64,000 bases of DNA from a phage, in sequence record PX104379.1. The stretch is one strand, 5' to 3'. The first letter of the stretch is position 1, and each line of letters begins with the position of its first letter. This document shows, one piece after another, positions 3,646-60,127 of this stretch. The translations under genes and the position numbers were made by a program. The notes under the pieces were generated by a model that was not told the origin of the DNA, made no database searches, and saw only the letters and a program-made list of their open reading frames with translations.

Positions 3646-3745
3646 AGTAAACGTTTAATACATCAATCATTAAAACGATTGGGAATATACTCAAAACTAT
3701 TAGTATTATAACTACATTCCATATAGCTTTAACAATCTTTTTCAT
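3632..3745 (-). CDS. small membrane protein (37 aa)
   Basis: ATG-started MKKIVKAIWNVVIILIVLSIFPIVLMIDVLNVYFGFM preceded by GGAGG; the longer track ORF to 3880 starts at TTG and runs through the promoter cassette. Confidence 0.4.
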   Translation of the reverse strand: MKKIVKAIWNVVIILIVLSIFPIVLMIDVLNVYFGFM

Positions 3746-3771
3746 TTTCTGTTCCTCCGTAGTTGATAGGG

Positions 3772-17351: not shown

Positions 17352-18122
17352 TTATCCTCGGATAAGTTTAAAAATTGAACAATTTAGCGGGTATCCTCTT
17401 TTCAGTTTAAGTTTATCAATAAAAGACAAGTTTTGATACCGCTCTACACCTTGAATAATTTTATCACACATATCATATTGCATTTCTGCTTCTGACAACT
17501 TTTTCACAATTTTCCAATCCGAGCCTTTAAGAAGAACGTTCAGTTTAACAACTTCAGCGCCTTCTGCTATGCGAGAACCATCAATACGAGCTTTAAGTGC
17601 TATAATCCTTAGCTTAATGTCAGAGGTCTGTTTTGATTTAGAAAGCTGAGAAATGTGTTCAATTCGATTTTCACGTTTTTTCTGTATAGCTTTAATTTGA
17701 TTATAAGTCTTTTTGATTTTAGCCCATTTCTTTTCATCTAAATTTAGTTTATGAACTTTTTTCGCAGATGAACGACCAATTCGCAAAGCAAATAAATCAC
17801 GCTTTTCAATCAACTCTTCTAAAGTATAATCAGAACGAAATGTATTATACTTTTTCTTTACTGCAATAACATTCCCTTTAATGTATCCAACGTTATTATC
17901 AAAACGTTCTAATGATAATTTCTCTCCTTCAATACGATTATCAAAAGGTTCTCCCGAGTAAGCGCAAACTTTCTGATCTAAAATGTTCTTAATGTAATTG
18001 AAGTCTAAGTTAAAATCTTTAGAACGTCTTTTAGCAGATGCCTGAGTGTGCTCTAAACGACGTTTAATTTTACGAATTTGATTATTAGACAGTTTCATAT
18101 TTTTCTCACATCTTACGGACAA
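17352..18122 (-). CDS. Srd-like protein (256 aa)
   Basis: Position between dda and modA as T4 srd; basic and lysine-rich. Confidence 0.45.
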   Translation of the reverse strand: MSVRCEKNMKLSNNQIRKIKRRLEHTQASAKRRSKDFNLDFNYIKNILDQKVCAYSGEPFDNRIEGEKLSLERFDNNVGYIKGNVIAVKKKYNTFRSDYTLEELIEKRDLFALRIGRSSAKKVHKLNLDEKKWAKIKKTYNQIKAIQKKRENRIEHISQLSKSKQTSDIKLRIIALKARIDGSRIAEGAEVVKLNVLLKGSDWKIVKKLSEAEMQYDMCDKIIQGVERYQNLSFIDKLKLKRGYPLNCSIFKLIRG

Positions 18123-22477: not shown

Positions 22478-23128
22478 TTATTTTTCCTTTCTTATGAAGT
22501 TTTCTATCATATGTCTATAGCAGATATTAGGATAACCTGCCTTGACAGCTATTTTATTAAATTTTGTGCGCTTAGGTCTATTATTATAAACCCATAATTC
22601 ATAAAGCGCATCATAACTATTCCATATTTCTCCTCGCCTAGGATTTGGTAAACCATATCGAGGTGAATTTTTACCGCTAAATCTTCCTTTTCGGGCTTTA
22701 CTCATATTAGCCTTGGCTTCATCGGATATAATTTTACCTTTATGAGCTAGACGCATTTTGGCTTTAGTTTCTTCTGGGGTCTTTTTGCCTTTAATCCATG
22801 ACGGCTTGCCATATCTAGGATTATTTTCACCCGAGAAAAGAACAGAGTTTTGGATTTTAAGGGTTTCTATTAATCTACTTGTTAATTTAACACCTTTATT
22901 ATATCGCATTAAATTTACAGCATAATGCAATCCTCTCACATCTGGATATATTTTAGTTAATAATCTATGAGCTATAAAATGCTCACGCGCAGTTAACTCA
23001 ACAAGATTGTTTTTGTCATCTGCTCCTCCTATACATCTAGGAATTATATGATGGCGTTCTTTATATCCGCCAAGATGCCGGCATTTAGCTTTTGTAATTA
23101 AAGCCGAGTAAATTTTTTGGTAATTCAC
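22478..23128 (-). CDS. free-standing HNH homing endonuclease (216 aa), GTG start
   Basis: HNH motif YKERHHIIPRCIGGADDKNNLVELTAREHFIAH; repeated NPRYG(K/L)P modules; GTG start with AAGGA RBS. Confidence 0.75.
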   Translation of the reverse strand: MNYQKIYSALITKAKCRHLGGYKERHHIIPRCIGGADDKNNLVELTAREHFIAHRLLTKIYPDVRGLHYAVNLMRYNKGVKLTSRLIETLKIQNSVLFSGENNPRYGKPSWIKGKKTPEETKAKMRLAHKGKIISDEAKANMSKARKGRFSGKNSPRYGLPNPRRGEIWNSYDALYELWVYNNRPKRTKFNKIAVKAGYPNICYRHMIENFIRKEK

Positions 23129-32100: not shown

Positions 32101-32128
32101 TTTGTGTTCCTCCGTAGTTGATAGTTGT

Positions 32129-38629: not shown

Positions 38630-40312
38630 TTAAACCATTACAGTAAATCGACCAACTTTTTTCATTTGAAGATGCTGACCGTATGCTTGTGGGTCATGGT
38701 CTCTATGCGAAATAACAAAAACATTAGTATTTTTTAAACTATCTAAAATAGTTGAAATAGCTTTTACACCTTCAACGTCGGTCGCTGAATCAAAAACTTC
38801 ATCAAGAATTAGTGTGTTTATTTTAACACCTGAAACTTTTTCAGCAATATCACGCCAAGTAAATAAAAGAGCAATATCAATTCGCGCTTTTTCACCTTGA
38901 CTGAATGAAGCATAACTAAAATCTTCACGACCACGGGATTTAATTGTCTCATTAAATTCTTCATCTAATGTAAACACATAATCCGCTTCCATTATTTTAA
39001 GATAATGGTTAATCTGCTTATTAAATAATGGAATGTACTTTTTAATAATAGCGCCTTTAATACCAGAATCTTTGAGCATATCAGTCAAAATTCCTCGGTG
39101 GTATTTTTCCATTACTAAATTAGTTTTTGTCTTAACAATTTTATCAAGTTCTTCTTGAAGCAGTGCTATTTCATCAGCATGGTCAATAAACTCAGAAGAT
39201 GCTTTTTCTATAGCTGCTTTAACTTTTTTAGCTTTATCTACTGTCGTGATTAGAGATTGCTTTTTATTGCGAATATCATTTGCCAACGACTGCTGGGTTT
39301 TAATATTATCTCGGTATTCATCAACAAGAACTTTTAAATTATCACGGTGTGTTGAAAGCTGTTCAAACGAATGCGTGCATTCAGAAACTTTATCTTTAAT
39401 TTTAGAAACAACTTTATCACCGGAACTCAATTGTGACAAACAGGTTGGACATAATCCACCTTCGTGATACATATTAATGACTTTATTATACGAGTCAATT
39501 TTTGATTTAATTAAAACTGCTTCTTGACCGATTTTATTAAATGCATCAGTCGGGTCTTCGTCTAAAACAATATTAACTAATCTTTCATTAGCTTCTTCTA
39601 TTTCCGATTTTAGCGTTCTAGCTTCTTTTGCCAAATCATCATACATATTTTGCAGACGAGTAAGATTGTCACCCGTTAATTTTTTCTGGCGTTCAACGTT
39701 ATCATTATATATTTTAATTTGTTGGATAATACTATCTTTTTTAACATCAAGCACTTGGTTTTGTGAATTTAATTCACGTATTAGTGCTTTATTAAGCTTA
39801 TCCATTTCAGCTAATGTTCCTACCTCAAGCAGGTCTTCCACAAGCTTTCTTCGTGCAGGGGTCGACAAACCCATGAAAGGGGTATACCCTGCTGTACCAA
39901 GGACAACAATCTGCTTGAAACTGGCATATGACATTCCGATAAGCTGTTCAAATTCTGCTTGGAAATCTTTACTGCTGGCAGATTCATTAAGACGTGTACC
40001 GTTAACGGTGATTTCGAAAACGTTTGGTTTTTGTCCTCTTTTGATATAGTACTTTTTCTCATCATATTCCATCCACAGTTCAACTAAAAGTTCTTTCTTA
40101 TTTGTGCTGTTTATTAATTGACCTTTCTTTACATCACGAAATGGCTTGCCAAAAAGCCCAAATGTGATGGCTTCTAACATAGTAGACTTACCACCGCCAT
40201 TTCGGCCAGTAATAAGAGTTTTTTGAACCTTATCTAATTGAATGTCAACTCCATTTTGACCAACTGACATTATATTTTTATATTTTACTCTATTAAGTTT
40301 AAATGATTTCAT
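38630..40312 (-). CDS. 46: recombination nuclease subunit gp46 (Rad50/SbcC-like ATPase)
   Basis: 560 aa as T4 gp46; Walker A GRNGGGKST; coiled-coil middle. Confidence 0.9.
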   Translation of the reverse strand: MKSFKLNRVKYKNIMSVGQNGVDIQLDKVQKTLITGRNGGGKSTMLEAITFGLFGKPFRDVKKGQLINSTNKKELLVELWMEYDEKKYYIKRGQKPNVFEITVNGTRLNESASSKDFQAEFEQLIGMSYASFKQIVVLGTAGYTPFMGLSTPARRKLVEDLLEVGTLAEMDKLNKALIRELNSQNQVLDVKKDSIIQQIKIYNDNVERQKKLTGDNLTRLQNMYDDLAKEARTLKSEIEEANERLVNIVLDEDPTDAFNKIGQEAVLIKSKIDSYNKVINMYHEGGLCPTCLSQLSSGDKVVSKIKDKVSECTHSFEQLSTHRDNLKVLVDEYRDNIKTQQSLANDIRNKKQSLITTVDKAKKVKAAIEKASSEFIDHADEIALLQEELDKIVKTKTNLVMEKYHRGILTDMLKDSGIKGAIIKKYIPLFNKQINHYLKIMEADYVFTLDEEFNETIKSRGREDFSYASFSQGEKARIDIALLFTWRDIAEKVSGVKINTLILDEVFDSATDVEGVKAISTILDSLKNTNVFVISHRDHDPQAYGQHLQMKKVGRFTVMV

Positions 40313-40327
40313 TTTGTATCCAATTGT

Positions 40328-41182
40328 TCACAATGAAGAAAATTCTTTAACTAAAGCCTGTAATGAAGCCTCTATTGGATATCCATTCTTAACTAACATT
40401 TTCCTAAACATCACATGTTTAGGACGATTATATGATATCCACAATTCATACAATTTATCTTTATTATCCCAATGATAGCCTTTTCGTCTAGATGCTATAT
40501 GAGCTTTTCTAATCTCCGGATTTTTCCAACTAGCAGCTACTGAATTTGATATAGCTATTTTATATTCAGGTTTTGATAAAGCAGCACGAACAGCCTTTTG
40601 GTGTTTAATTTTATTTTCTTCGTTATTAAACCATTCCCTTGAAGCCATTGAAATTTTTTGTTTTGTTTTAAAATTATTTAATCTTTCTTTGTTATCTTTC
40701 CTATTTTTTGCTACTGAAAAATATTTTAATGCCCTTTCTCTAGCAGCATTTCTATTTTGCGGATTTGAATAATACTGTTGAAGCCTTTTTGATATTGTGT
40801 CACTTACATCTTGTTTTATAAAACTATATTCAGCAGCTATTAAATCAACTTCGGCTAAAGATAAATTTTTATATGTTTTTCCTGACATCATTCTATTTAA
40901 AGCATTTAGCATTTTTCCATTTTTACCTTTTGCTAATAAGAAGTGTGCTTTAAAATGATTAAAATGACTTAAATTAACTAAATTCCATGTAGATTTTAAA
41001 TATTCAGGAAATATTGATTTAGGAAGCACGTGGTGTGCTTCCGTTTTACCTGGAGTTTTAACAGTTGAATTCATAGAAATAAAATTAATGTAAGACTTGG
41101 CGTCTTCTTCACTCAACGCTAATTTTTCAACTAATTCCTTTATTAAAAATTCATCATTAATGTCAAGTTTAAAATTCTTCAC
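40328..41182 (-). CDS. free-standing HNH homing endonuclease (284 aa) inserted between 46 and 47
   Basis: HNH motif EAHHVLPKS...NLVNLSHFNHFKAH; C-terminal block shared with the other HNH gene. Confidence 0.75.
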   Translation of the reverse strand: MKNFKLDINDEFLIKELVEKLALSEEDAKSYINFISMNSTVKTPGKTEAHHVLPKSIFPEYLKSTWNLVNLSHFNHFKAHFLLAKGKNGKMLNALNRMMSGKTYKNLSLAEVDLIAAEYSFIKQDVSDTISKRLQQYYSNPQNRNAARERALKYFSVAKNRKDNKERLNNFKTKQKISMASREWFNNEENKIKHQKAVRAALSKPEYKIAISNSVAASWKNPEIRKAHIASRRKGYHWDNKDKLYELWISYNRPKHVMFRKMLVKNGYPIEASLQALVKEFSSL

Positions 41183-41394
41183 AAAAGATTCCTTTTAATG
41201 TATCTTTTAGACCATTCTATCATATCATCATAATCTAAAAAGTATTCATCAAATTTAGCCATGCAAACAACACCTTGTGCTGCTTTTGATGTGATATAAA
41301 TTATTCCAACATATCTAGAATCTTCTTCGGTATAATCAATATTTGCTATGAATTCATCATTAATGTCAAATGTCGAAAACTTCACAGTATGCAT
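41179..41394 (-). CDS. hypothetical protein (~72 aa from ATG at 41394)
   Basis: MHTVKFSTFDINDEF...; 5' end duplicated at the start of the HNH gene. Confidence 0.4.
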   Translation of the reverse strand: MHTVKFSTFDINDEFIANIDYTEEDSRYVGIIYITSKAAQGVVCMAKFDEYFLDYDDMIEWSKRYIKRNLL

Positions 41395-41629
41395 CCTTAA
41401 TACAAGATACAGCCATATCTCGTAATGATTTAGGTGTGTCATTATCTAAAATGTTGAAGTTAAAAGATACAGCCCAGTCAGTGCAGACTGTAACCTTTTT
41501 AATACAATTATCTTCAACCTCTAGCGGTTCAAACCAATATTCAATAATTTCTTTATGACCAATATCATCTTTTACTTCGCATTCAAAATGCTGACTCATC
41601 ATAACATTTTTAAATTCATCAAAAGTCAT
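41366..41629 (-). CDS. hypothetical protein (87 aa)
   Basis: ORF track. Confidence 0.5.
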   Translation of the reverse strand: MTFDEFKNVMMSQHFECEVKDDIGHKEIIEYWFEPLEVEDNCIKKVTVCTDWAVSFNFNILDNDTPKSLRDMAVSCIKDAYCEVFDI

Positions 41630-42645
41630 TGTGTTGCCTCTACATATAGCTGATTCGCATATTGAATAAGTGCTTCACGGTCAGAATCAGTGATGTCTGG
41701 AATTGCATTAATGTATTCTTCCATCAACGTCTGAAGAGATTGAACTTCAACTTCTTCACTTTCATCTGACTCGACAGAGTTATCAATTTTTGACACAACT
41801 CGTAATGAATGCACAACTTTTTCTAGTTCAGATTCGAACTTCGTCAGATTTTTGTCTACCTCAGTTACTATAACACGTACTGATAGATTTGTAAAATCTT
41901 TATAGTCAATTTTTCCTTTAAATGGATAATGAATTCTACGATGCCAGGTAGTATTGTTTGGAATAAATTCCATTCGTTCTGTTTCTGTATCAAACATCCA
42001 GAACCCACGAGGGTCATTCTCGTCACCTGCAGTTAGTGTCCATGGTGTCCCAATATATCTGACGTTAGCAGCCTCAGAGATAGTATGGAAGTGACCAGAC
42101 CACACTTCCTTATAAGTCTTAAGGAAATCAGGTTCAAGACCGTGAGATTTCATTCCTTTATAAAAATAAAATCCGTTCAGTTCCCAGTGACCAACGCAAA
42201 AAGAAGCAGATGAAGTTTTGATGTGTTCAAGAATTTCACCAGTATTTTCTTCACACATCCAAGGAATTAAATCAATTAAACATCCGTCAAAATCTACTGT
42301 AGTAGGCTTATCATATACTTTAACATTAGGATATTTAGCCAAAAGCTCAGTAGAGGCATTTGGAGTTAAAGTATTTTTAAAGTGCATATCATGGTTTCCT
42401 ACAACAGTATGTAGGGTAATACCAGCATCATCAAGCATTTGAACTATTTCACGAGCGAACTCCATAGTTTTATGCGTGATTGCTTTTCGCACATCAAAAA
42501 TATCGCCGTATTGAATCCATGTAGTAATTCCATTTTTCTTAGAATATTCTATTGCTTGTTTAATTCCATCCAACTGAATGGATTGAACCCACTCATCATC
42601 GGCTTTAACACCTAAATGCCAATCACCTAAATTTAAAATTTTCAT
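41626..42645 (-). CDS. 47: recombination nuclease subunit gp47 (Mre11/SbcD-like)
   Basis: 339 aa as T4 gp47; calcineurin-like phosphoesterase motifs GDWHLG, GNHD. Confidence 0.9.
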   Translation of the reverse strand: MKILNLGDWHLGVKADDEWVQSIQLDGIKQAIEYSKKNGITTWIQYGDIFDVRKAITHKTMEFAREIVQMLDDAGITLHTVVGNHDMHFKNTLTPNASTELLAKYPNVKVYDKPTTVDFDGCLIDLIPWMCEENTGEILEHIKTSSASFCVGHWELNGFYFYKGMKSHGLEPDFLKTYKEVWSGHFHTISEAANVRYIGTPWTLTAGDENDPRGFWMFDTETERMEFIPNNTTWHRRIHYPFKGKIDYKDFTNLSVRVIVTEVDKNLTKFESELEKVVHSLRVVSKIDNSVESDESEEVEVQSLQTLMEEYINAIPDITDSDREALIQYANQLYVEATQ

Positions 42646-48365: not shown

Positions 48366-48836
48366 TTAATCATGTTTCCACACCCCATCGGTATTTGACC
48401 AAAGTCGCTGATTATCTGATCCTCGCCACAGCTTTTTAGTCGGAAGATTTTTCTCATACTTCCCATCAATAATAACATCAACATATTTAAGCATTTCTAG
48501 TTGTTTAATATCTTCAAACTTATATCCTGTCCACAACCAAATGCTTTTATTGGGATAAAGATTTTTTACTGTTTGAACCACAGAGTGAATCACGTCTCTG
48601 TTATCAGGATAAAGAGGGTCACCTCCGGTTATAGTTAATCCTTCTATATAATCATTATTCAAACATTCAATTAATTGTTCTAGTGTTTCACCAGTGAATG
48701 GAATACCATTTCTAGCATTCCATGTTGATTTATTATAACACCCTTCGCATTTATGCAAACAACCTGTAACGAAAAGAACGACCCTGCATCCAGGGCCATT
48801 CACAAAATCGCAAGGATAAAATCTATCATAATTCAT
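48366..48836 (-). CDS. nrdG: anaerobic ribonucleotide reductase activating protein NrdG (radical SAM)
   Basis: 156 aa as T4 NrdG; Cys cluster CLHKCEGCYN. Confidence 0.85.
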   Translation of the reverse strand: MNYDRFYPCDFVNGPGCRVVLFVTGCLHKCEGCYNKSTWNARNGIPFTGETLEQLIECLNNDYIEGLTITGGDPLYPDNRDVIHSVVQTVKNLYPNKSIWLWTGYKFEDIKQLEMLKYVDVIIDGKYEKNLPTKKLWRGSDNQRLWSNTDGVWKHD

Positions 48837-57810: not shown

Positions 57811-58338
57811 TTATGCGAGTACCGTCTTTAACCGTTCTTCAAACTTCCGAAGAGTATTCTGGCGTTCAGCTCTTTGCTTTTTGTAAGTTTCAATACGCTC
57901 TGAAATGAGAGTGTATCGTTCATTTACTGATTCTTTCATAAAATCAGGAATTTCACGAGAAGCTTTAATCTCGTCAAATTTATCAATAACAGCTTGCTCT
58001 TCAGCAATTAAGTTATCATACATCAAAATATCTTTCTTGATGAACTCAATATCTTCTTGAGTTACACGAGATAATTTAGATGCTTTATCCTTTTTGTACT
58101 GTTCGTTAGTATCACGAGACCAGTGTAATGTACGATTTTTATTCGTATTTTTGTAAATTTCTACAATACCAATCTCATCGATGATAACAATCCAATTCCA
58201 ACGAGATTTATAAATTTGTCCTCCATCAACCGTGATTTCACCTCCAATTGAGATGTCATTAAAGAACTTGCTTTGTGCTTCAGATTTAAATTTACCATCG
58301 TTGTAATTTACCAAGTTGAAAATATCTTTAGCATTCAT
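57811..58338 (-). CDS. hypothetical protein (175 aa) with C-terminal coiled coil
   Basis: ORF track; GGAGG RBS after early promoter. Confidence 0.5.
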   Translation of the reverse strand: MNAKDIFNLVNYNDGKFKSEAQSKFFNDISIGGEITVDGGQIYKSRWNWIVIIDEIGIVEIYKNTNKNRTLHWSRDTNEQYKKDKASKLSRVTQEDIEFIKKDILMYDNLIAEEQAVIDKFDEIKASREIPDFMKESVNERYTLISERIETYKKQRAERQNTLRKFEERLKTVLA

Positions 58339-58366
58339 TTTCTGTTCCTCCGTAGTTGATAGTTGT

Positions 58367-60029: not shown

Positions 60030-60067
60030 TTTGTATCTCCAATTTACTCATTTGTTTTGATAGTTGT

Positions 60068-60097
60068 ATAGTACCATAAAGCTTTATGCTTGTAAAC
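60068..60097 (-). promoter_or_regulatory. T4-type early promoter
   Basis: Minus strand GTTTACAagcataaagctttatggTACTAT. Confidence 0.6.
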
Positions 60098-60127
60098 AGT
60101 TTTGTGAAAAATTTTTGAAATAAAAAA

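Follow-up and report, generated by a model that had tools for sequence, protein, structure and literature searches.

The window analysed here is the whole of a 64,000-nucleotide (nt) stretch of phage DNA, sequence record PX104379.1, and the feature of interest is an HNH endonuclease gene at the start of gene 46, together with a short repeat near the 5' end of the endonuclease gene. The window is a segment of a Tequatrovirus (T-even phage). The queried 2-kb region is 99.7% identical to Citrobacter phage PhiZZ23 and 99.6% identical to Shigella phage CM8. All genes around the HNH open reading frame (ORF) are on the minus strand. From the highest coordinates down, these are gene 47 (41626..42645); gene 46.2 (41366..41629); gene 46.1 (41179..41385), which is intact, encodes 68 amino acids (aa) and matches Pfam DUF5487 over residues 1-66; the HNH ORF (40328..41182; 284 aa, GTG start); and gene 46 (38630..40312), which encodes a Rad50/SbcC-like recombination nuclease subunit and is complete at 560 aa, with the start MKSFKL. 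The gene 46.1 protein contains ..VKFSTFDINDEF.. and its start in the T4 annotation is the GTG equivalent to 41385, preceded by a well-spaced AAGGA. An earlier reading of this DNA, made from the letters alone (the sequence-only reading), had started gene 46.1 at an alternative ATG at 41394, where AAGG immediately abuts the ATG.

Judged from its sequence, the HNH ORF (40328..41182) is a homing endonuclease gene of the Mob type (MobD-like) and is intact; its activity and its start are predicted. The protein begins MKNFKLDINDEF. It matches PHROG 655 ('homing endonuclease', E 7.8e-45) and PHROG 12434 ('HNH endonuclease', E 4.4e-15), and it is 30% identical to T4 MobD over residues 47-281 (E 2e-11). 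Many records annotate this ORF as 'homing endonuclease', and its homologues in Escherichia phage F2 and Salmonella phage Melville are annotated as 'MobD-like homing endonuclease'. The HNH motif, EAHHVLPKS...WNLVNLSHFNHFKAH, is at 40943..41041 (codons 48-80). In a family alignment of nine sequences, the residues of the HH...N...H motif (H50, H51, N67, H76 and H80) are invariant. The family profile has weak matches to HNH domains in the PDB (Cas8f-HNH, a group II intron maturase and McrA; E 0.012-0.15), and a single-sequence PDB search with the ORF returns no match.

A sibling HNH ORF in the window, at 22478..23128, is 29% identical over 243 aa (BLASTP, E 4e-13). The two proteins share the C-terminal block LYELW..NRPK..F.K..VK.GYP and both match PHROG 655. 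The sequence-only reading had pointed to this block and suggested that one endonuclease family has settled at two sites, and the comparison bears out both points. The sibling also has a NUMOD3 match and a sub-threshold HNH match (18.8 bits against a cut-off of 21.4). A third nuclease-like ORF (17352-18122, minus strand; 256 aa; ...CAYSGEPF...NNVGYIKGNVIAV...) has no significant Pfam family, and its sequence is unrelated to the two Mob-type ORFs.

The empty site was defined by alignment of the window with T4 and nine other Tequatrovirus loci, four with the insert and five without. In the insert-free phages, gene 46 starts GTGAAGAATTTTAAACTT|AATAGAG, and its GTG overlaps the stop codon of gene 46.1. 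In the window, the same 18 nt (41165..41182) are codons 1-6 of the HNH ORF (MKNFKL), again with the GTG overlapping the 46.1 stop. These 18 nt are identical to the gene 46 start in insert-free T4, PYps11T, teqskov, phage 132 and vB_EcoM-CHD2BS1. Because gene 46 begins identically in insert-free phages, endonuclease codons 1-6 are the resident gene 46 start and not a copy of the 46.1 start. After GTGAAGAATTTTAAACTT, the window diverges into GACATTAATGATGAATTT.... The region is 2001 nt long with the insert and 1131 nt long without it, so that near-identical genomes differ by exactly 870 nt. The 870-bp insert occupies 40295..41164 and follows the sixth codon of the original gene 46. A copy of TTTAAACTT at each end (41165-41173 and 40295-40303) leaves a 9-nt ambiguity in where exactly the insert lies.

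At its 3' end, the cassette reads TGA-acaattggatacaaa-ATGAAATCATTTAAACTT and then rejoins AATAGAG.... The spacer acaattggatacaaa (40313..40327) is absent from insert-free phages and carries a new, weak ribosome-binding region for gene 46. The second segment, ATGAAATCATTTAAACTT, is a new gene 46 start (ATG, MKSFKL) borne by the element. The original and the element-borne starts are alike at 14 of 18 nt, and the last 9 nt match exactly. With this ATG and the recoded codons provided by the 3' end of the cassette, gene 46 remains complete. The alignments thus identify the duplication that defines the insertion as that of the gene 46 5' end and not that of gene 46.1. The 3' end of the endonuclease gene also varies. 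In a 290-aa variant from Logan assemblies (P0020), the protein ends ..EFLHCEQLDTK* and the TGA overlaps the gene 46 ATG (ATGA). Compared with P0020, the window type has one extra T (window 40313-40335), which gives ..EFSSL* and a 15-nt gap before gene 46. The P0020 C-terminus is probably ancestral and translationally coupled, because it runs as far past 'EF' as the proteins of F2 and Melville do.

The insert does not resemble a transposon with a target-site duplication. The 9-nt TTTAAACTT repeat flanks the insert, but no terminal inverted repeats were found, the sole ORF of the insert is the HNH nuclease and the right-hand copy of TTTAAACTT is within a 66-nt recoded host segment. Nor does the insert resemble a group I intron or an intein. 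Rfam finds no intron in 39800-42000 at E<=1, a separate stop codon closes the endonuclease ORF and a separate start opens gene 46.

The first 22 codons of gene 46 (40247..40312; ATGAAATCA... to ...GGAGTT) are a recoded patch that is inherited with the element. Within three phage groups, carriers and naive phages are identical at 47/66, 52/66 and 40-42/66 positions over nt 1-66 of gene 46. Over the next 54 nt, the same comparisons give 51-54/54 identical positions, and the difference ends abruptly after nt 66. All carriers from all three groups have the recoded patch as a flank. The carriers all encode ..Y(K/S)NIMSVGQ.., whereas the naive phages all encode ..YQNIMSVGG(N/S)PID... The window and Melville patches share 24 consecutive identical nt, although their endonucleases are only 44% identical. 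Single-nucleotide polymorphisms (SNPs) at 40250/40249 are common to all five carriers examined. Together, ATGAAATCATTTAAACTT and the downstream patch replace the native GTGAAGAAT... and the naive patch, and they form a recoded copy of the presumed target that is encoded by the element itself.

Three alleles of the gene 46 patch are found: ..GTAGGTGGAAATCCTATT.., ..GTTGGTCAAAATGGGATT.. and ..GGAGTT... Among Tequatrovirus records, about 360 have the naive allele (..VGGNP..) and 72 have the carrier allele. An additional group of about 70 insert-free records, including T4 (L001 10920-10985), contains a carrier-type patch (..VGQNG..) except for two SNPs. Deletion between the TTTAAACTT repeats would yield the T4 sequence apart from these two SNPs (GGGATT for GGAGTT). 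By analogy with known Mob systems, this T4-type patch may be the footprint of element loss, or of co-conversion or immunisation without the gene.

Of about 510 Tequatrovirus records, 72 have the endonuclease gene, and about 430 that are otherwise 96-99% identical lack it. The T6 copy is intact and the T2 copy is frameshifted. The RB51 and RB68 copies are decayed, and that of RB68 is cut to 208 aa. In the Gelderlandvirus, the gene is present in 5 records and absent from 11. The SNPs of the left flank do not sort by element presence. These unsorted SNPs and the decayed T2 and RB68 copies are what would be expected of a homing endonuclease gene that moves and from time to time decays. A protein cluster at 90% identity has 85 members, of which 40 were read; 15 were listed by length and eight of those 15 were read. 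Of these eight, the six with an N-terminus all start MKNFKLDINDEF and the other two are C-terminal fragments. Literature searches found no paper describing this particular element, and a 2010 review table merely counts it among the 'putative HEGs' (homing endonuclease genes) of T2, T6 and RB51. It is an uncharacterised element of a known class, the free-standing Mob-type HNH homing endonuclease cassettes.

The 5' end of the endonuclease gene contains a further host-derived sequence. The exact 19-mer AATTCATCATTAATGTCAA has only two copies in the window, at 41351-41369 and 41148-41166. Copy A (41351..41369) is native: it is at the matching codon positions of gene 46.1 and is also found in insert-free T4. 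Copy B (TTGACATTAATGATGAATT; 41148..41166) consists of the last 2 nt of endonuclease codon 6 and codons 7-12 (DINDEF). The two copies are in identical frame and register, at codons 7-12 of two adjacent ORFs. Similarity around the 19-mer extends the match to 45 nt, of which 78% are identical, and the two copies are 203 nt apart. The number of chance matches expected in the whole window is 0.14, even when 3 mismatches are allowed, and a 19-nt exact repeat is attained in 1 of 1000 Markov-1 simulations of the local 1.5-kb region. This rarity, together with the shared frame and register in adjacent ORFs, argues that the 19-mer is not a chance match. It is a second, separate borrowed segment that covers codons 7-12 only. 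The leader of the window-type endonuclease is GACATTAATGATGAATT.

The direction of copying is from gene 46.1 to the endonuclease gene. This follows from four observations: (D/H)EF is kept in the 46.1 proteins of T4-type, RB69-type and S16-type phages, T4 has the 19-mer, the DUF5487 match begins at residue 1 and the closer endonuclease homologues are without the DINDEF motif. The idea that DINDEF is native endonuclease sequence, prompted by the start MDINF of the fPS-2 homologue, was considered and rejected. The family alignment puts the two DIN motifs in different columns, and the same lack of the motif in closer homologues and conservation of DEF/HEF in 46.1 across genera count against it.

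The closest diverged homologues, at 44% identity, are at the same 47/46 locus in Melville (Gelderlandvirus) and F2. The 46.1/46 region of F2 is RB69-like. The F2 endonuclease ORF starts ATGACGAAGACTGATTATGAAA, which is identical to nt 1-22 (MTKTDYE) of the intact RB69-type 46.1 gene of phiE142. The F2 endonuclease is therefore fused to 46.1 codons 1-7, and the remainder of 46.1 is missing from F2. This arrangement means that a fusion of the endonuclease lineage to a 46.1 start exists in nature. In Melville, the endonuclease gene occupies the place of the 46.1-like ORF of the related phage S16, and the ORF starts at the gene 47 stop. In both phages, the 3' end of the endonuclease ORF overlaps the gene 46 start.

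A relative at 35% identity is found at a different locus in Yersinia phage PST (L005 1201-2070; P0003 family), where it is annotated as mobC. Its start is the original ATG of nrdG, which overlaps the nrdD stop. It carries nrdG codons 1-13, identical at 38/39 nt to nrdG of the window (48798-48836), and its 3' end gives nrdG a recoded start again (MNYDRIYPCCFVN). The nrdD/nrdG junction of the window is an empty site for this PST-type gene. Because F2 and PST both take over a host start, and PST also regenerates a recoded one, takeover of a host-gene start seems to be a habit that recurs in this Mob clade. The PST-type 'mobC' is a relative of the endonuclease described here and is not the T4 MobC protein. 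T4 MobC (L017 2907-3539) starts MNYDRIY, NrdG starts MNYDRIYPCDF and the sibling ORF at 22478..23128 starts MNYQKIY. Capture of the T4 MobC start from nrdG is ambiguous, since other Mob proteins natively begin MNYxxIY too, and it is not used as evidence.

The reading preferred here, with a probability of about 0.72, is that an 870-bp HNH cassette is inserted in frame in the 5' end of gene 46, homes in linkage with the recoded patch and acquired its 19-mer in two steps. Comparison with the empty sites shows that the endonuclease ORF takes over the original ribosome-binding site of gene 46 and its GTG, the predicted start. The reading frame runs through gene 46 codons 1-6 and six codons identical to 46.1 codons 7-12 into the endonuclease proper, and the first 66 nt of gene 46 travel with the cassette as the recoded patch. 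In a mixed infection, the enzyme would nick or cut naive gene 46 alleles within the patch (the ..IMSVGG(N/S)PID.. version), and repair of the break would copy in the cassette plus an immune patch. The patch at 40247..40312 is probably the immune version of the target site, by analogy to MobE, which nicks its downstream gene in the 5' region, and to the homR sequence of MobA elements.

Within this reading, the 19-mer would be the fossil of an earlier fusion of the endonuclease to gene 46.1, joined to the endonuclease gene by recombination between two similar neighbouring start regions. The start regions are AAGGA-N8-GTGAAG....TT in gene 46.1 and AAGGA-N7-GTGAAG....TT in gene 46, with TT at the junction in both, and they are identical in register at 13/18 nt over codons 1-6. 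In the first step, the endonuclease would have been fused to 46.1 codon 12 (46.1 codons 1-12::endonuclease, GTGAAGTTTTCGACATTTGACATTAATGATGAATTTTTAATAAAG) and would have displaced the 46.1 body. Its counterpart would be the F2 relative, still fused at 46.1 codon 7. In the second step, an in-register crossover with a phage that had an intact 46.1 would have placed the endonuclease behind gene 46 codons 1-6 and restored 46.1. A crossover between a 46.1(1-12)::endonuclease genome and a normal 46.2-46.1-46 genome would give exactly the observed order, which is intact 46.1, gene 46 codons 1-6, 46.1 codons 7-12 and endonuclease. The two-step route is the most likely origin of the 19-mer, ahead of single-step insertion and of gene conversion.

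Several observations weigh against this account. The Tequatrovirus intermediate, 46.2-46.1(1-12)::endonuclease without the 46.1 body, was not found in the collections searched, and all 72 carriers and the listed cluster members show the window arrangement. With a synthetic 95-nt 46.1(1-12)::endonuclease query, the top full-length matches are all in two pieces 203 nt apart, which is again the window arrangement. An exact scan of IMG/VR for the leader/endonuclease junction gives 0 matches, and a scan of 241 million metagenome records for a 23-nt junction pattern gives one match, in an unrelated context and by chance. The F2 junction is at 46.1 codon 7 and not at codon 12, so the F2 and window fusions are not one inherited event. 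The recoded patch could be explained by ordinary mosaic recombination instead of target immunity. The HNH ORF has no Pfam (PF01844) or NCBIfam match at E<=0.01, and an AlphaFold2 model from a seven-sequence alignment (mean predicted local distance difference test score 54.7, predicted template modelling score 0.35) is too poor for a fold search.

The strongest of the rival explanations, although unlikely, is a single step in which the cassette entered after gene 46 codon 6 and the repair polymerase switched briefly to the 46.1 start. This start is 203 nt away and has a similar TGTGAAG....TT context, and the switch would leave a templated insertion of about 19 nt at the left junction. No intermediate arrangement was seen in the databases searched, as this explanation would have it, and what was copied is a short tract whose register matches the similar start region exactly. 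Against it, F2 shows that fusion to the 46.1 start and loss of the 46.1 body do occur at this locus, and the Melville endonuclease likewise stands in place of the 46.1-like ORF of S16. Given the F2 and Melville arrangements, a 46.1 kept beside the endonuclease gene looks derived.

Gene conversion after insertion is less probable still. In this explanation, the endonuclease originally had another leader, about 19 nt of which were overwritten by a short ectopic conversion from 46.1. In its favour, the TGTGAAG and TT flanks are common to both start regions; against it, homology on the 3' side of the tract is minimal, and no unconverted leader occurs among the 72 records or the eight cluster members read of the 15 listed. 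The two copies drift independently, as in SYGD1 and phage 132, which have a SNP at 41359 within the 46.1 copy; conversion is thus not continuous, and could have been a one-off event.

The sequence-only reading had placed the element between genes 46.1 and 46 and had taken its 12-codon start for a diverged duplicate of the 46.1 initiation region. It rightly saw an exact repeat and an insertion, and relatives do have empty sites: T4 and other insert-free phages align across the site. Its coordinates for the native copy are correct, and those for the other copy (41149..41167) are off by one. The proposed duplicate of initiation sequence is real for codons 7-12, which come from 46.1; codons 1-6 are the gene 46 start itself, which they match at 18/18 nt compared with 13/18 for 46.1. 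The 78% identity over 45 nt, which includes the shared GTGAAG, favours a duplicate of the whole start, but the same 18 nt run straight into gene 46 in insert-free phages. The locus interrupted is accordingly gene 46, after codon 6, and not the 46.1/46 intergenic space, and the 66-nt recoding of gene 46 had been overlooked. As an explanation of the whole leader, 46.1 duplication is contradicted by the empty-site alignments and is very improbable. Hardly credible at all is a chance match in AT-rich sequence with no history: the single unrelated metagenome match, whose pattern includes 17 nt of the 19-mer, indicates that such strings recur by chance at very large scale, but the simulations, the restriction to two copies in 64 kb and the shared frame and register in adjacent genes count against it.

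Beyond the preferred two-step, patch-linked account, a wider suggestion is made only tentatively. The mobile unit would comprise the captured leader, the endonuclease and the recoded 22-codon start, and the patch, not the endonuclease, would be under nucleotide-level constraint. T4 and about 70 other insert-free phages might then be 'vaccinated' survivors, in which the immune patch stayed behind when the gene was lost or was present without the gene ever having arrived. The cassette might also tune production of gp46/gp47, the nuclease that processes the breaks it makes, because the translation start of gene 46 has been taken over. If this is true, T2, T4 and T6 would represent a directly testable cycle of invasion, immunisation and loss.

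The locus gives a single-nucleotide view of how a selfish endonuclease gene can occupy the beginning of an essential gene and leave it unharmed. The element would reuse host translation signals and the first host codons as its leader and bring a rewritten start for the host gene, and the 19-mer would record its previous address. Linkage to the patch predicts the region that the enzyme cuts and predicts that T4 is already immune. For annotation, the warning is that both such endonucleases and their host genes begin with chimeric residues, and 'intergenic' labels for free-standing endonuclease genes can err by a few decisive codons. As an insertion without harm to the host, the element is a tidy but ordinary case.

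A scan for sigma-70-type promoters in the region gives no excess over shuffled sequence, and the T4 late-promoter sequence TATAAATA is not present in the region. Rfam gives no intron or other RNA family, and there is no bypass-like element. The endonuclease ORF contains a perfect 8-bp GC-rich hairpin at 41022-41042 (minus-strand RNA; GGAAGCAC-ACCAC-GUGCUUCC; dG -14.4 kcal/mol, z -4.8). It is at the codons for TEAHHVLP, has no U-run after it on the sense strand and appears to be absent in the F2 and Melville homologues. A terminator-like hairpin with a T-rich tail is inside gene 46.2 at 41468-41492 (minus strand; TACAGTCTGCACTGACTGGGCTGTA TCTTTTAACT). In the 1.6-kb region, there are 3 terminator-like sites compared with 0.4 expected from shuffles.

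Other features of the neighbourhood also vary among phages. In RB68 (L002 4873-5000) and F2 (L004 4976-5692), an annotated homing endonuclease gene on the opposite strand is directly downstream of gene 46; the window has gene 45.2 in its place. With this downstream gene counted, such genes insert at either end of gene 46 in the phage group. The insert-free phage vB_EcoM-CHD2BS1 (L007, about 668-727) has a 55-nt tandem duplication of the gene 47 end and the gene 46.2 start (GAGGCAACACAATGACTTTTGATGAATTTAAAAATGTTATGATGAGTCAGCATT, repeated). Exact repeats of 17-30 nt are dispersed in the window at 624-700, 3741-3760, 32105-32121, 58334-58362 and 60057-60116 (e.g. GTTGATAGTTGTATAGTACCAC), and their spacing and intergenic sites suggest shared promoter or regulatory regions.

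The element can be compared with several known systems. T4 MobD has the same HNH motif and C-terminal block, but it sits elsewhere, at the nrdC.11/mobD.1 locus. The F2 and Melville homologues belong to the same family and locus, and the gene 46 patch beside them is recoded in a similar way and encodes VGQ; unlike the window element, these homologues contain neither gene 46 codons nor the DINDEF 19-mer. The PST-type gene has the same architecture, with a host start overlapping the upstream stop, captured host codons and a recoded start at the 3' end. It differs in its host gene and in having no second segment borrowed from a third gene.

MobA elements in topoisomerase gene 39/60 bring an element-encoded recoded copy of the target, 'homR' (10.1101/2022.08.31.505936). 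The window element resembles them in being an HNH cassette within a coding sequence that has a diverged copy of a host segment around the presumed nick site. MobA leaves its host gene split, so that two polypeptides with new tails are made, and adds a translational bypass, whereas gene 46 of the window is whole, a single complete 560-aa ORF with no bypass, and only six orphaned gene 46 codons are reused, as the endonuclease leader.

T4 MobE is promoterless and relies on transcription from upstream; it nicks the gene downstream of it in the 5' region, and the hairpin inside mobE is a terminator that limits mobE transcripts (PMC2790892). The window element is like MobE in being an HNH Mob-type gene that is oriented like the adjacent genes, shows no promoter of its own, has a start that overlaps the upstream stop and contains a stable hairpin in the ORF. 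The presumed target is likewise in the 5' region of the downstream gene, with co-converted flanking markers (PMC2790892). MobE lies between genes (nrdA/nrdB); the window element is inside the coding start of the downstream gene and fused in frame to its first six codons.

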